Assembly: GCA_048938895.1 (NCBI GenBank)
Contig: JBHLLU010000030.1
Span: 1-51,845 of the forward strand
Source of the DNA: Promethearchaeota archaeon
GTDB taxonomy: Archaea > Asgardarchaeota > Lokiarchaeia > Sigyniarchaeales > SOKP01
Direction: 5' to 3'
Length of the DNA stretch: 51,845 nucleotides
Under the pieces are notes generated by a model. That model was not told where the DNA came from. It saw only the letters and a list, made by a program, of their open reading frames with translations, and searched no databases. This document shows positions 24,929-40,422 of the stretch, one piece after another (within the stretch, counting starts at the first letter, position 1; every line of letters starts with the position of its first letter). Position numbers and translations under genes: made by a program.

Positions 24929-25032
24929 CGGGCTATAGGGGAATTGAACCCCTGACCTTCCTTTCTATAAGAGACCATCTAATAAATTTCAGGTTAAAAG
25001 CCTGCCGCGCTACCTGCCTGCGCTAATAGCCC
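24929..25032 (-). tRNA. tRNA-Lys(UUU) with a 30-nt non-canonical intron (24958-24987, about position 44/45)
   Basis: Acceptor GGGCTAT/ATAGCCC+G, D stem GCGC/GCGC, anticodon loop CTTTTAA, T arm AGGGG-TTCAATT-CCCCT. Confidence 0.92.
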
Positions 25033-26250: not shown

Positions 26251-26352
26251 GCCTCTGTGGCTTAGTGGTAGAGCTATTGATTCGTAATCAATTGATCACG
26301 TGATTCAAGCGATCAGATGATTCGGTCGGGGGTTCAATTCCCCCCAGAGGCT
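26251..26352 (+). tRNA. tRNA-Thr(CGU) with a 30-nt non-canonical intron (26292-26321, about position 42/43)
   Basis: Acceptor GCCTCTG/CAGAGGC+T, anticodon arm ATTGA-TTCGTAA-TCAAT, T arm GGGGG-TTCAATT-CCCCC. Confidence 0.92.
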
Positions 26353-26356
26353 CTTT

Positions 26357-27370
26357 TTATACATCTTCAGTGAAAACATATTGTTTTATTATTTGAAGGG
26401 CAAGCATGTTAAATGCATCATTTATATTTTCACCTGTTTTTGCTGAAGTTTCTATATAGGAAAGATTTAAAGTTTTAGCTAAACTCTCTCCGGTTTCAGT
26501 GGAAATCACCCTTTCTTCTTCTAAATCTATTTTATTTCCTACTAAAATTAAGGAAATTTTTGGCGATACTTCCATTATCTCATTATACCAATTTTCAACT
26601 TTATCATAAGTATCTTGACGAGTTACATCATATACTAAAATCCCAGCTTCAGCATTTGATAAATATGATTGTCTTACTCGTTTGAATTGGGCCTGTCCTG
26701 CTAGATCCCAAAGTACAAATCTTACTTTTGACTCTAAACCTTCAAAATCACATTCCTTTTTCATAATCGACGTCCCAATTGTAGATTTATAATCGGTTTG
26801 AAATGAATTTTCAACAAAACGATGTACCATACTTGTTTTTCCTACTCCTCCTTCCCCCCCTAAGATTAGTTTATAGGCATATTCTCCCGATTTAATCTTT
26901 ATTTTTTGAAGAGTATCTACTTTTCGTTCAATCTTTTCAACATTTTGTTCTGAAAAAAGTTTAGGAATCACAGGACTTACTGGTCTCCCATCAAAAATTC
27001 GAGCTATTTTTTCAGCTGCTAAATAGGCATATGGAAAAATAGGATCAACCATAGCAATTGACTCTAAAACAGTAACAAAAATCGCTTCAGATCCTGCTTC
27101 GCAAAAAATAATACGATGTTCTTCTGTATCAAATGTTCCTGTTCCAAAAGCACCTGAGCTGAACTCTTCTGTAATTCTGGTTAGAACAGGTTCCACTAAA
27201 GCGCTAACACCACCAATTACATCTTCCTCCACTTCCGTCTCTGATTCTCCTTTTAGAGCAGCCATTACCAATCCCTCTCTATTCACAATTATGGCCGCAA
27301 TCAAATTTATACCCACTTCTTGTCTATACCACTTTAATAATGCCTCTAGTTTATCTCGATCAACTGACAT
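26357..27370 (-). CDS. Roadblock/LC7 domain fused to a Rab-like small GTPase
   Basis: N-terminal AAIIVNREGLVMA roadblock pattern; C-terminal GEGGVGKT, WDLAGQ, NKID, ETSAK. Confidence 0.9.
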   Translation of the reverse strand: MSVDRDKLEALLKWYRQEVGINLIAAIIVNREGLVMAALKGESETEVEEDVIGGVSALVEPVLTRITEEFSSGAFGTGTFDTEEHRIIFCEAGSEAIFVTVLESIAMVDPIFPYAYLAAEKIARIFDGRPVSPVIPKLFSEQNVEKIERKVDTLQKIKIKSGEYAYKLILGGEGGVGKTSMVHRFVENSFQTDYKSTIGTSIMKKECDFEGLESKVRFVLWDLAGQAQFKRVRQSYLSNAEAGILVYDVTRQDTYDKVENWYNEIMEVSPKISLILVGNKIDLEEERVISTETGESLAKTLNLSYIETSAKTGENINDAFNMLALQIIKQYVFTEDV

Positions 27371-27773: not shown

Positions 27774-27953
27774 GCAGGGGTAGCCAAGATTCTAGAATAG
27801 ATCTTCTAGAATTATACTAGAGAATACCTCTAAAATACTAGAATGGGAATTGGTCTACGGCGCTAGACTGAGGCTCTAGTGACATAGGTCTTCGTGGGTT
27901 CGAAAATTGAATATAGATCATATCGATCACCTTAGAAAATCCCACCTCCTGCA
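27774..27953 (+). tRNA. tRNA-Leu(GAG) with a D-loop insert (27789-27849, two nested introns) and a T-loop intron (27905-27939)
   Basis: Acceptor GCAGGGG/CTCCTGC+A, anticodon arm CTAGA-CTGAGGC-TCTAG, long variable arm, T stem GTGGG/CCCAC; removing 61+35 nt leaves an 84-nt class II tRNA. Confidence 0.9.
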
Positions 27954-28066: not shown

Positions 28067-29269
28067 TTGGTGTTTTTTATTACAAGTGTATTAATAAATA
28101 AAGAATATGAAGCCAAAAAACATGTTGAATCACTGGCTTTTAATAGATCTGCCTCATCTACCGGAGAAACAAAGGCTATTGATTATATTGAAGAAGAATT
28201 AAGAAAAGAGAACATTGATTCTAAACGTGAATATTTTCACTGGACAGGTCCTACAAGAATCTTAATGAGAACCAGTTATTTAATTCTAATCACATATCTC
28301 CTATTATCTCGGTTAATTTTGGTAATAGTAATTTACTTTGTTATAAAACACCTATTTGAAAGAACACGGAAAATGACTTTAATAAAAAAAGAAACATCTA
28401 AAAGTATTTACGCTGAAATACCTGCAAGTAATCAAGAATCAAAAAAACCTCTCATAATTTTTTCTGCTCATTATGATTCAGTTTCAGCAAACATTCCCTT
28501 TCGGTTTCAAGTTATGATGTTTTTGATATATAGAATGATAGTTGCTTTTTATATTCTAATTGTTATTATATTTTCCATCTGGCTTACTCTTGATATTTTT
28601 AGCCTTTTTAGCCTTCCAAGTAATATTATAAATATAATTGCAATAGTCTCTTTATTTGGAATAGTAGTATCACTTCCAATACTATACCTTGTTTTTAATG
28701 AAAAACCCTCTTCATGCTCAATAGATAATGCTAGTGGTGTTGCGATATTAATTGAATTAGCTAAATTTTTCCAGAGAGATCCGTTAGAAAATTTTGATTT
28801 ACTATTTATTTGGCCTGGTGCTGAAGAATGGGGTTTAAAAGGATCCAAGAAATTTTGTGCTCAACATTTTGGTACTTTAAAAGAAAAATATGATCTAAAT
28901 AAATCTATAAATATCAATATAGATATGGTTGGGACTTATATTGGATTGTTAGATAAAGCAGGATTTCCATTAAGAAAAAAGATGAATAAAGATTATAATA
29001 ATCTTATAGAAACCACCGCAAATTCATTAGATATCCCAATTACTAGATATAATAAAATAATAGAACCAAAAAGTGACCATATAATTTTCAGGAGAAAAGC
29101 TAGAAGATTTGGGAAAAAATTTCAAACTATCTTCTTCCACTCAGATAAAGATTCTAAGTATATTCACTCTCTACGAGATACTCCCGATAAAGTTTTGCCT
29201 GAAAACTTAAATGGGTGCGTAGCAATTTGTTACCACGTTTTAAAAGATATCGACAATGGGATAGAGTAA
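28067..29269 (+). CDS. Membrane-embedded M28 family metallopeptidase
   Basis: AHYDS, DNASG, AEEWGL, NIDMVG, SDH, IHSLRD motifs with inserted TM segments. Confidence 0.88.
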   Translation: MVFFITSVLINKEYEAKKHVESLAFNRSASSTGETKAIDYIEEELRKENIDSKREYFHWTGPTRILMRTSYLILITYLLLSRLILVIVIYFVIKHLFERTRKMTLIKKETSKSIYAEIPASNQESKKPLIIFSAHYDSVSANIPFRFQVMMFLIYRMIVAFYILIVIIFSIWLTLDIFSLFSLPSNIINIIAIVSLFGIVVSLPILYLVFNEKPSSCSIDNASGVAILIELAKFFQRDPLENFDLLFIWPGAEEWGLKGSKKFCAQHFGTLKEKYDLNKSININIDMVGTYIGLLDKAGFPLRKKMNKDYNNLIETTANSLDIPITRYNKIIEPKSDHIIFRRKARRFGKKFQTIFFHSDKDSKYIHSLRDTPDKVLPENLNGCVAICYHVLKDIDNGIE

Positions 29270-38931: not shown

Positions 38932-40422
38932 TTACCCCTTAACAACTCCTACTGGTACAAGTCTTACAACCTTTTCAACAATATCCAGATCATGACTCAC
39001 TTGAACCACTTGATCTATATCTTTGTAGGCTCCGGGACTTTCTTCGGCTAGCACTTTCATAGAGGCACTTTTTACTAAAATACCTTTCTTTCCTAAATCT
39101 TCTTGAATTTTAGTTCCCCAGTATCTTTTGACTGCTTTTGATCTAGACATAACTCTACCCGAACCGTGAGCAGTTGATCCAAAAGATAACTCCATGGCTC
39201 TTGGTTTACCAACGCATAAGTAAGAGGCTGACCCCATAGTTCCAGGAATTAAGGCAGGTTGACCAATGTCTTTATAATCTTGAGGTAAAACTGGGTGATT
39301 TGGAGGAAATGCTCTAGTTGCTCCCTTTCTATGCACATTTAATTTCATCCTTTTTCCATTTACTTCATGCTCTTCTATCTTGAGAATGTTATGGCAAACA
39401 CCATATATCATATGTAAATCCAACTCATCTAAATCTTTCTTAAATGCATTTTGAAAGGATTCTCTTAACCAATGTGTTATTAATTGACGATTTGTAAATC
39501 CAAAATTAGCAGCACAAGCCATTTGTTGTAAATAATTCTGTGCTTCAAGAGTATCCGCAGGTACACAAGCTAGTTCTCTATCAGGCACTTTAATCTTATA
39601 TTTTTTCATTGCTTGTTCTATTTTTCGCAAACTATCTGTACAAACTTGATGTCCTAATGCTCTACTCCCTGTATGAATCATTATAGTGATTTGATTCTTT
39701 TCAGTTATTCCTAATTTCTTAGCAATTGGGGTATTATAAATTTGATCTACTTTCTGAATCTCAAGAAAATGGTTTCCGCTTCCTAATGATCCAAGCTGTT
39801 TAATTGCTCTCTGTTTTGCTTTCTGTGACACCAAACTTGCATCTGCATTCTTCAAACATCCACGTTCTTCTAAGTGTTTAAGATCTTCGTCAATGGCATA
39901 ACCATTTTCTAACGCCCAATTGACCCCATTATTTAGTACTCTATCTAAATCTGAATAGCTTATATTTAGTTTACCTTTAGAACCTAATCCGGAAGGGATA
40001 TTATTAAATATTTTATCTAATAAATTTGGGAGTACATTTTTAAGATCGTTAAGAGATAGATTTGATCTTAATAAACGTACACCACAATTAATATCGTACC
40101 CTACGCCTCCTGGAGATATCATTCCAGTCTCAGCATCTGTCCCAGCAACCCCACCAATACAAAAACCATATCCTTGGTGGGCATCTGCTAATGCGATTGC
40201 ATGTTTTTGAATTCCTGGAAGGCATGCTACATTTGCGATTTGATCTAATGTCCGATCCTGTTTTATTTTTTCTAAGATATAATTATTGGCATAGATCTTG
40301 ACAGGGACTCGCATCTGGAATTTTTCTATATTTCCTTGAATACGCGTCATCAAAGTTTTAGGAGATATCTCATAGATATTCTCCTCAACTTTATTCACAT
40401 TCATACTGCAATTATAAGTCAA
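38932..40422 (-). CDS. rtcB: tRNA-splicing ligase RtcB (start possibly ATG 40404)
   Basis: DAHQGYGFCIG, GVGYDINCG, GSGNHFLE, HTGSR, HRKGATR, HGSGR, EESPGAYK; no intein. Confidence 0.98.
   Translation of the reverse strand: MTYNCSMNVNKVEENIYEISPKTLMTRIQGNIEKFQMRVPVKIYANNYILEKIKQDRTLDQIANVACLPGIQKHAIALADAHQGYGFCIGGVAGTDAETGMISPGGVGYDINCGVRLLRSNLSLNDLKNVLPNLLDKIFNNIPSGLGSKGKLNISYSDLDRVLNNGVNWALENGYAIDEDLKHLEERGCLKNADASLVSQKAKQRAIKQLGSLGSGNHFLEIQKVDQIYNTPIAKKLGITEKNQITIMIHTGSRALGHQVCTDSLRKIEQAMKKYKIKVPDRELACVPADTLEAQNYLQQMACAANFGFTNRQLITHWLRESFQNAFKKDLDELDLHMIYGVCHNILKIEEHEVNGKRMKLNVHRKGATRAFPPNHPVLPQDYKDIGQPALIPGTMGSASYLCVGKPRAMELSFGSTAHGSGRVMSRSKAVKRYWGTKIQEDLGKKGILVKSASMKVLAEESPGAYKDIDQVVQVSHDLDIVEKVVRLVPVGVVKG

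Follow-up and report, generated by a model that had tools for sequence, protein, structure and literature searches.

A candidate BHB-type intron module lodged within another in the D-loop of an Asgard tRNA-Leu(GAG) gene

The window analyzed here, a stretch of 51,845 nucleotides with a G+C content of about 30% from a Promethearchaeota archaeon (assembly GCA_048938895.1, contig JBHLLU010000030.1), carries on its forward strand a tRNA-Leu(GAG) gene at positions 27774-27953, which sits in an ORF-free gap between the end of the upstream ORF at 27370 and the start of the downstream ORF at 28067. In-silico splicing combined with ARAGORN resolved the 180-nt pre-tRNA into the three exons of a class II tRNA gene and three intron modules, all on the forward strand. 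The 5' exon (27774-27788) corresponds to tRNA positions 1-15, is collinear with orthologues that lack the D-loop insert and is invariant in the 10 orthologues that bear it. It is followed by a composite 61-nt insert (27789-27849) at position 15/16 of the D-loop, which has a homologue of 59-61 nt in 10 of the 54 genomes of the genus. The middle exon (27850-27904) comprises the rest of the D-loop, the anticodon arm with the GAG anticodon at 27870-27872, the long variable arm and the 5' half of the T-arm, and it is separated from the 3' exon (27940-27953) by a third intron of 35 nt (27905-27939), of the relaxed hBH type, at position 59/60 of the T-loop.

When 27789-27849 and the 35-nt T-loop insert were deleted by their coordinates, ARAGORN called an 84-nt tRNA-Leu(GAG), and the spliced product was a normal class II tRNA. 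This confirmed the identity assigned to the locus in a first-pass annotation made from the letters alone, and the dimensions given there also held, i.e. an insert of 61 nt (27789-27849), an inner part of 32 nt (27812-27843) and a remainder of 29 nt. The D-loop left after removal of the insert was normal, as had likewise been proposed; it measures 12 nt here and 13 nt in the nine other insert-bearing orthologues, the latter being the length found in intron-less relatives. The exons are collinear with those of orthologues lacking each insert, which supports a canonical tRNA after removal. The 35-nt T-loop intron had been absent from the first-pass annotation. Its registers 27903-27937, 27904-27938 and 27905-27939 all yield an identical product, and its BHB uses the T-stem as h (5 pairs), a central helix with 3 of 4 pairs and an h' of 1 pair, so that it is effectively without h'. 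It occurs in some of the orthologues and is missing from that of genome G027.

ARAGORN called no gene in the unspliced sequence, in the form from which only the D-loop insert had been removed, or in the form lacking only 27812-27843, and the unspliced locus was also missed by Rfam at its gathering and E-value thresholds, which returned one chance snoRNA match there (E 5.9). ARAGORN found no tRNA anywhere in the window, and the only tRNAs that Rfam reported in it were two others, at 26251-26352 and 24929-25032. The case thus shows why tRNA-Leu(GAG) escapes standard finders. That neither program sees the gene would also fit a decaying pseudogene whose insert stays unspliced, with tRNA-Leu(GAG) supplied elsewhere or unneeded, the more so in a 174-contig draft with an estimated contamination of 7.5%. 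Against this, intact exons show no variation across 10 species, in contrast to the variable intron loops, two other studies have contigs with near-identical copies, splicing yields a normal tRNA, and the GAG anticodon arm of this gene is the only one in the assembly, which is 98.7% complete; we regard a pseudogene as very improbable. As the sole GAG anticodon arm of the assembly lies here, the cell should obtain its tRNA-Leu(GAG) from this locus.

The D-loop insert is built around the palindrome TTCTAGAA, which is present twice, as segment A (27790-27797) and segment B (27804-27811). Its last six bases recur a third time as segment C (27838-27843, CTAGAA), which provides a CTAG helix strand and two bulge bases. 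The 5' part of the outer module (27789-27811) consists of the third base of a bulge, segment A, a 6-nt loop (27798-27803) and segment B, and its 3' part (27844-27849) consists of a TGGG strand that pairs with the exon bases CCA and of two bulge bases. Between them lies the inner module of 32 nt (27812-27843), formed by the third base of a bulge, a hairpin (27813-27837) and segment C; this piece therefore sits between the outer hairpin strand, which ends at 27811, and the outer pairing strand, which starts at 27844. The bulge-helix-bulge (BHB) motif of archaeal protein-spliced introns has a 4-bp helix between one 3-nt bulge on each strand and is cut behind the second base of each bulge. A BHB scan identified the inner module as a strict BHB with cuts at 27811|27812 and 27843|27844, in which the CTAG of segment B pairs with the CTAG of segment C in a complete central helix (4/4), the two bulges are of 3 nt each (AAT and AAT), the h flank has 4 pairs (two of them G-U), and h' has 3 pairs, a 2x2 internal loop and 5 more pairs. 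The first-pass description of the inner intron as a strict BHB was thus corroborated, and the complete central helix and the 3-nt bulges recur in 10 of 10 orthologues. For the outer module the scan gave cuts at 27788|27789 and 27849|27850, a central helix of 3/4 pairs between exon CCA and TGG with G10 unpaired, the bulges AGA and AAT, and, once the inner piece is gone, an h' made of the 8-pair A:B hairpin. All 10 orthologues show this relaxed HBh' form. The anatomy that had been proposed, one module of 32 nt wholly within another of 29 nt, accordingly stands, and we consider the nested anatomy of the 61-nt insert highly probable.

Several other features of the insert were noticed along the way. 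A C/D-box guide within the insert was rejected by inspection, as 27789-27849 contains neither a TGATGA nor a CTGA box. The loop 27798-27803 is complementary to the D-loop exon at 27852-27857 over 6 pairs, a pairing that we take as chance; the loop differs in the other nine species. The anticodon stem (27863-27867 and 27875-27879) is built of a CTAG palindrome like segments A, B and C, and segment C and the 3' strand of that stem are paired in the fold of minimum energy predicted for the entire precursor. An intron directly after the CTAG of the anticodon stem is present in 9 of the 10 insert-bearing orthologues.

The two-module insert was found in 10 of the 54 genomes of the genus, that analyzed here included, and full genes were recovered from all ten. 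In the alignment of the 10 sequences, the share of paired cells is 100% for the central helix of the inner motif. For the inner hairpin h' it is 86.7%, including 2 compensatory pairs, and for the inner h it drops to 65%. The remainder after removal of the inner piece is 29 nt in all ten, with an h' of 7-9 pairs in nine of them, and the 3/4 pairs of the outer central helix are invariant throughout. For the A:B helix the share of paired cells is 92.5%. Invariant columns amount to 7/8 in segment A, 5/5 in the core of segment B, 3/6 in segment C and 2/14 in the loop (B core versus loop, Fisher p = 0.0018). The 1-nt and 0-nt spacers that set the exact BHB geometry are constant in the 10 species, while the loops accept indels.

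Further occurrences of the insert were found in other material. A nested insert is also present in metagenome contig L129, and genome G021 holds the 3' part of the insert at the same locus, the remainder reading N. In one of the near-identical copies from the two other studies, position 27794 is changed from A to G, and both possible pairings are kept as G-U. A pattern search of the genus for the inner module matched 7 of the 9 other insert-bearing loci and the same locus in G021, leaving G000, G023 and G027 unmatched; a match in G068 with 3 mismatches was taken as chance. Neither the 54 genomes of the genus nor 4 metagenome runs contained the outer module alone with the same hairpin sequence, and the contigs of 4 DNA runs showed neither a joint nor an allele without the inner piece. 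When the insert was compared with its own genome by blastn-short, the matches listed were, besides the locus itself, only short ones of 11-22 nt.

To evaluate the size of the insert, 34 orthologous genes were aligned to the spliced reference without the use of motifs. Besides 69 inserts of 22-35 nt, five of which the aligner had cut into two, this gave 10 inserts of 60-61 nt at position 15/16 and none of intermediate length. With 60-61 nt against 22-35 nt elsewhere, the composite insert therefore has both the dimensions and the construction of two ordinary modules. Two sibling genera have tRNA-Leu(GAG)-like genes in which this site is occupied by a simple intron, of 28 nt in G088 and G092 and of 33 nt in G107 and G109, with the same boundaries, namely the bulge AGA, the TGGG strand and AA. 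These introns were picked up by a pattern search with matches in 5 of 161 genomes of the class, at 6 places of which 2 are chance matches in coding DNA. A metagenome scan with an 18-nt signature of the 5' exon yielded 23 stretches; L129 and L142 are the two relevant to position 15/16, five (L132, L135, L137, L141 and L150) resemble other tRNA-Leu genes, and the other 16 lack a tRNA-Leu D-loop after the match. Contig L142 shares the 5' exon signature of the clade and carries a simple 36-nt intron at 15/16. As side observations, a soil-metagenome relative in run X6 has a different hairpin with the same TGGAAA ending at the same D-loop site (30 letters, before 27850), and the tRNA-Leu(GAG)-like genes of G088 and G092 (L042 and L043) have C at anticodon-loop position 33, which is usually T.

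These comparisons bear on a different reading, according to which all 61 nt make up one intron that is excised in a single step by cuts at the outer sites, its internal BHB-like fold being an unused by-product or relic of three CTAG copies and a structured interior. The stem of the 36-nt intron of L142 resembles segments A and C around a plain loop, so that the interior could simply have grown, and a control in which BHB introns were peeled from the precursor reached tRNA-Leu(GAG) through a direct 61-nt cut. On the other hand, at 60-61 nt the insert is about twice as long as every other insert in the 34 orthologues, and the fixed spacers among loops with indels are not what one-step removal would lead one to expect. 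One of the shuffle controls speaks for one-step removal. When the insert was shuffled 5000 times by mononucleotides and 5000 times by dinucleotides, a strict internal BHB of some kind appeared in 470 and 489 of the shuffles, respectively (about 10%), and one BHB motif alone is therefore weak evidence. With the boundaries fixed, a shuffled 32-mer combined a 4/4 helix with an h' of at least 3 pairs in only 47 of 200000 trials. Covariation overall was not above that of shuffles, since 72-97 of 500 shuffles attained the observed values, and no observed substitution distinguishes the A:B, B:C and A:C pairings, A, B and C all being copies of a single palindrome. Conservation is a stronger argument than these shuffle statistics.

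The first-pass annotation had claimed that the outer intron forms only after removal of the inner one, and had concluded that splicing is obligatorily ordered. The BHB scan does not support the first of these claims as it was worded. In the unspliced RNA, bases 27790-27795 of segment A can pair with segment C (27838-27843), which builds the outer motif with a 6-pair h' and an outer central helix of 3/4. The obligatory order went further than the sequence dictates, as the A:C pairing gives the outer motif an alternative route; the order is not enforced by the sequence alone because C repeats the end of B, letting A pair with C. A fixed, obligatory order is therefore doubtful as judged from the sequence. 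The same A:C helix, which completes the relaxed outer motif in the unspliced RNA and is paired in 98.3% of cells across the 10 species, speaks for removal of all 61 nt at once, and the inner central helix is seldom populated in the predicted ensemble of this genome (0.015-0.03, with 0.96-0.98 for the A:B hairpin). Nevertheless, the ensemble probability of A:C did not exceed 0.036 in any of the 10 species, and that of B:C reached 0.37-0.92 in G024, G008 and G023. The calculated energies were -10.8 kcal/mol for A:B plus the hairpin, -8.9 kcal/mol for the outer motif via A:C and -6.9 kcal/mol for the inner BHB, which counts against removal of the inner piece first. In the folding models, A:C pairing is thermodynamically disfavoured.

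Sequence variants bear on the same choice. In G070 and L129 the A:C pair adjoining the cut site is broken, and G070 keeps the inner motif, which counts against one-step removal; in G026 the A:B helix is weakened and A:C is perfect, which counts against removal of the inner piece first. The core of segment B is invariant, even though one-step removal would leave it unpaired, and a model that relies on A:C only does not account for this conservation and gives B no role. The invariance of B argues for use of the inner motif. We therefore consider removal of the insert as a single 61-nt intron possible but unlikely, and separate excision of the inner piece, as suggested by the sequences compared, somewhat probable. 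Folding has its limits in this question. The 3-bp outer helix had a folding probability of at most 0.06 even in the intermediate or in fragments, and because it is never predicted, folding cannot decide whether the motif forms, and some of the work must fall to protein binding. Since the T-loop intron in this pre-tRNA is without h', the enzyme may well cut loosely defined sites, which counts against removal of the inner piece first.

The CTAGAA repeats permit several registers, which raised a further possibility, that of two abutting introns in tandem instead of a nested pair. No two adjacent motifs that together restore the D-loop emerged from the scan. The pair 27811/27849 does not qualify, its h' having 1 pair by hand count and the pair not being among the scan results, and the 59-nt register 27789/27848 leaves a D-loop of 14 nt here and of 15 nt in relatives. 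A tandem arrangement is hardly credible on these grounds.

Two genes with an EndA domain (PF01974) were identified, on contig C83 (202 aa; about 69404-70012, plus strand) and contig C123 (200 aa; about 60543-61145, minus strand). The C83 protein aligns with PDB chain 3p1z_B (E 7e-35) gap-free across the loop, keeps the Tyr, His and Lys residues, and retains a Lys and an Arg matching K44 and R46 of the Crenarchaea-specific loop (CSL). The C123 protein has a Ser at the position of a His in chain 1a79_A, which we take to be a catalytic residue. As judged from these alignments, the pair would fit an (alpha-beta)2 EndA composed of a predicted catalytic subunit and a non-catalytic paralogue. Asgard archaea are described as possessing an (alpha-beta)2 EndA with an L1 loop in the account of Kaneta et al. 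(PMC5829648), and the Crenarchaea-specific loop is described as conferring broad substrate specificity, D-loop introns included, in that of Hirata et al. 2011 (PMC3241643). The window itself contains on the minus strand, at 38935-40242, a gene for an RtcB RNA ligase (PF01139, 566.5 bits, E 4.9e-170), which is likely the exon-joining enzyme. Its location in the same window, about 11 kb from the tRNA genes, is probably a coincidence.

Our preferred reading, to which we assign a probability of roughly 60%, is that the insert represents two BHB-type modules, the 32-nt one placed exactly where, in the 29-nt one, the hairpin meets the 4-nt strand that pairs with the exon. From the anatomy, its conservation, the enzyme genes and the tRNA product we infer cutting at these sites and its order, which would proceed as follows. 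The heterotetrameric EndA would cut the inner motif, which arises when B pairs with C and the inner hairpin stacks on that helix, and RtcB would ligate the ends. Segment B would then adjoin TGGG, and the A:B hairpin together with the CCA:TGG helix would present the outer motif for a second EndA cut and RtcB ligation, giving the 12-nt D-loop. The T-loop intron would be taken out independently. The inner-first order would be preferred and not enforced, and the A:C alternative would free all 61 nt in one piece.

Nesting of this general kind has precedents. The 2009 work of Tocchini-Valentini reportedly agrees with a last intron whose motif forms once processing of the others is complete. For Crenarchaeota (Thermoproteales), two reviews describe a last intron that forms its motif only after the others are processed (PMC3728597, PMC3978253), in agreement with the earlier statement that nested introns are known from this group; the primary sources that they cite are Sugahara et al. 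2007 RNA 13:671 and Tocchini-Valentini et al. 2009 PNAS 106:20246. The present locus shares with the crenarchaeal pre-tRNAs, as those reviews portray them, BHB introns of which one interrupts the motif of another and an EndA of the broad-specificity (alpha-beta)2 type. In contrast, it belongs to Promethearchaeota (Asgard), its inner module lies wholly within the outer intron, at the junction of hairpin and pairing strand, and its triplicated palindrome offers the outer motif a second route, so that the order may not be enforced. This comparison follows the reviews' descriptions.

Other precursors resemble parts of the system. The Aeropyrum pernix pre-tRNA-Thr, as presented by Hirata et al. 2011 (PMC3241643), also has a D-loop intron, and its heterotetrameric EndA uses the K44 and R46 loop, both residues of which are kept here; it differs in having a single intron, in coming from a thermophilic crenarchaeon and in having been tested experimentally. 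The pre-tRNAs of Cyanidioschyzon merolae likewise hold several BHB motifs per precursor and, in the account of Soma et al. 2013 (PMC3728597), show a preferred order of removal that follows motif stability, but this organism is a eukaryote and its motifs are explicitly not nested, each folding alone. High intron loads have been published for Asgard tRNA genes (PMC11291895; Goswami et al. 2026, bioRxiv 10.64898/2026.10.13.758758), and these accounts have in common with the present locus many non-canonical or multiple introns, D-arm inserts that escape annotators, and BHB sites. As far as their available text goes, the two papers centre on Atabeyarchaeia, Freyarchaeia and related families, and in that text the word "nested" has 0 occurrences; the preprint's supplements might list cases. 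No Asgard case of nested or twin BHB introns was found in the literature searched, with the same reservation as to those supplements. Nested tRNA introns are thus of a kind already known, and Asgard archaea are a lineage for which no earlier report was found.

How Asgard tRNA introns arrive, in numbers described as unusually high, is presented as an open question in that preprint (bioRxiv 10.64898/2026.10.13.758758), and observations on other introns touch on it. In the tRNA-Leu(GAG) genes of seven genus genomes (L022, L024-L028 and L030) the D-arm intron is a copy of the gene's own anticodon-stem intron. Over their first 24 nt the two introns are 58-100% identical (24/24 in L025), and the copies differ mainly in their 4-nt strand for pairing with the local exon. 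Judging by these sequences, the D-arm intron of the seven genomes looks like the outcome of intragenic intron copying, and the nested module and the D-arm copies together point to hairpin modules being copied into sites that pair with their 3' strand.

Other tRNA genes carry unusual inserts as well. The two tRNAs recognized by Rfam in the window, at 26251-26352 (+) and 24929-25032 (-), with CGU (Thr) and UUU (Lys) in their anticodon loops, each hold an insert of about 31 nt that lies, at a non-canonical position, between the anticodon stem and the T-stem. A T-arm/acceptor scan with in-silico intron peeling, which was a partial and noisy census that skipped genes with T-loop introns, gave six more tRNA candidates missed by Rfam on contigs C39, C91, C99, C113 and C138 of genome G000. 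They are best read as tRNAs for Met, Glu (two), Asp, Leu(CAG) and Ala, with one intron of 25-37 nt each, and ARAGORN offers an alternative for each. About a dozen tRNAs of G000 are still unaccounted for after this partial census.

With 180 nt, three introns and two enzyme genes, the pre-tRNA provides a defined substrate for the question of splicing order. In its strongest form the proposal would be a literal intron within an intron, maintained while at least 10 Promethearchaeota species diverged. An existing intron would have gained a new BHB intron in its interior, with removal of the inner piece as a required first step and the triplicate CTAG as a partner switch in which B pairs with C and then with A; we put this forward tentatively, as an outcome that is possible and rather unlikely. 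If it were true, intron gain in Asgard archaea would be blind to exon function and would target any site that pairs with the 4-nt strand, and the locus would be a natural substrate both for ordered splicing and for intron arrival. The inner module gives no benefit to the mature tRNA, and the nested module would therefore be a clean record of the insertion process.
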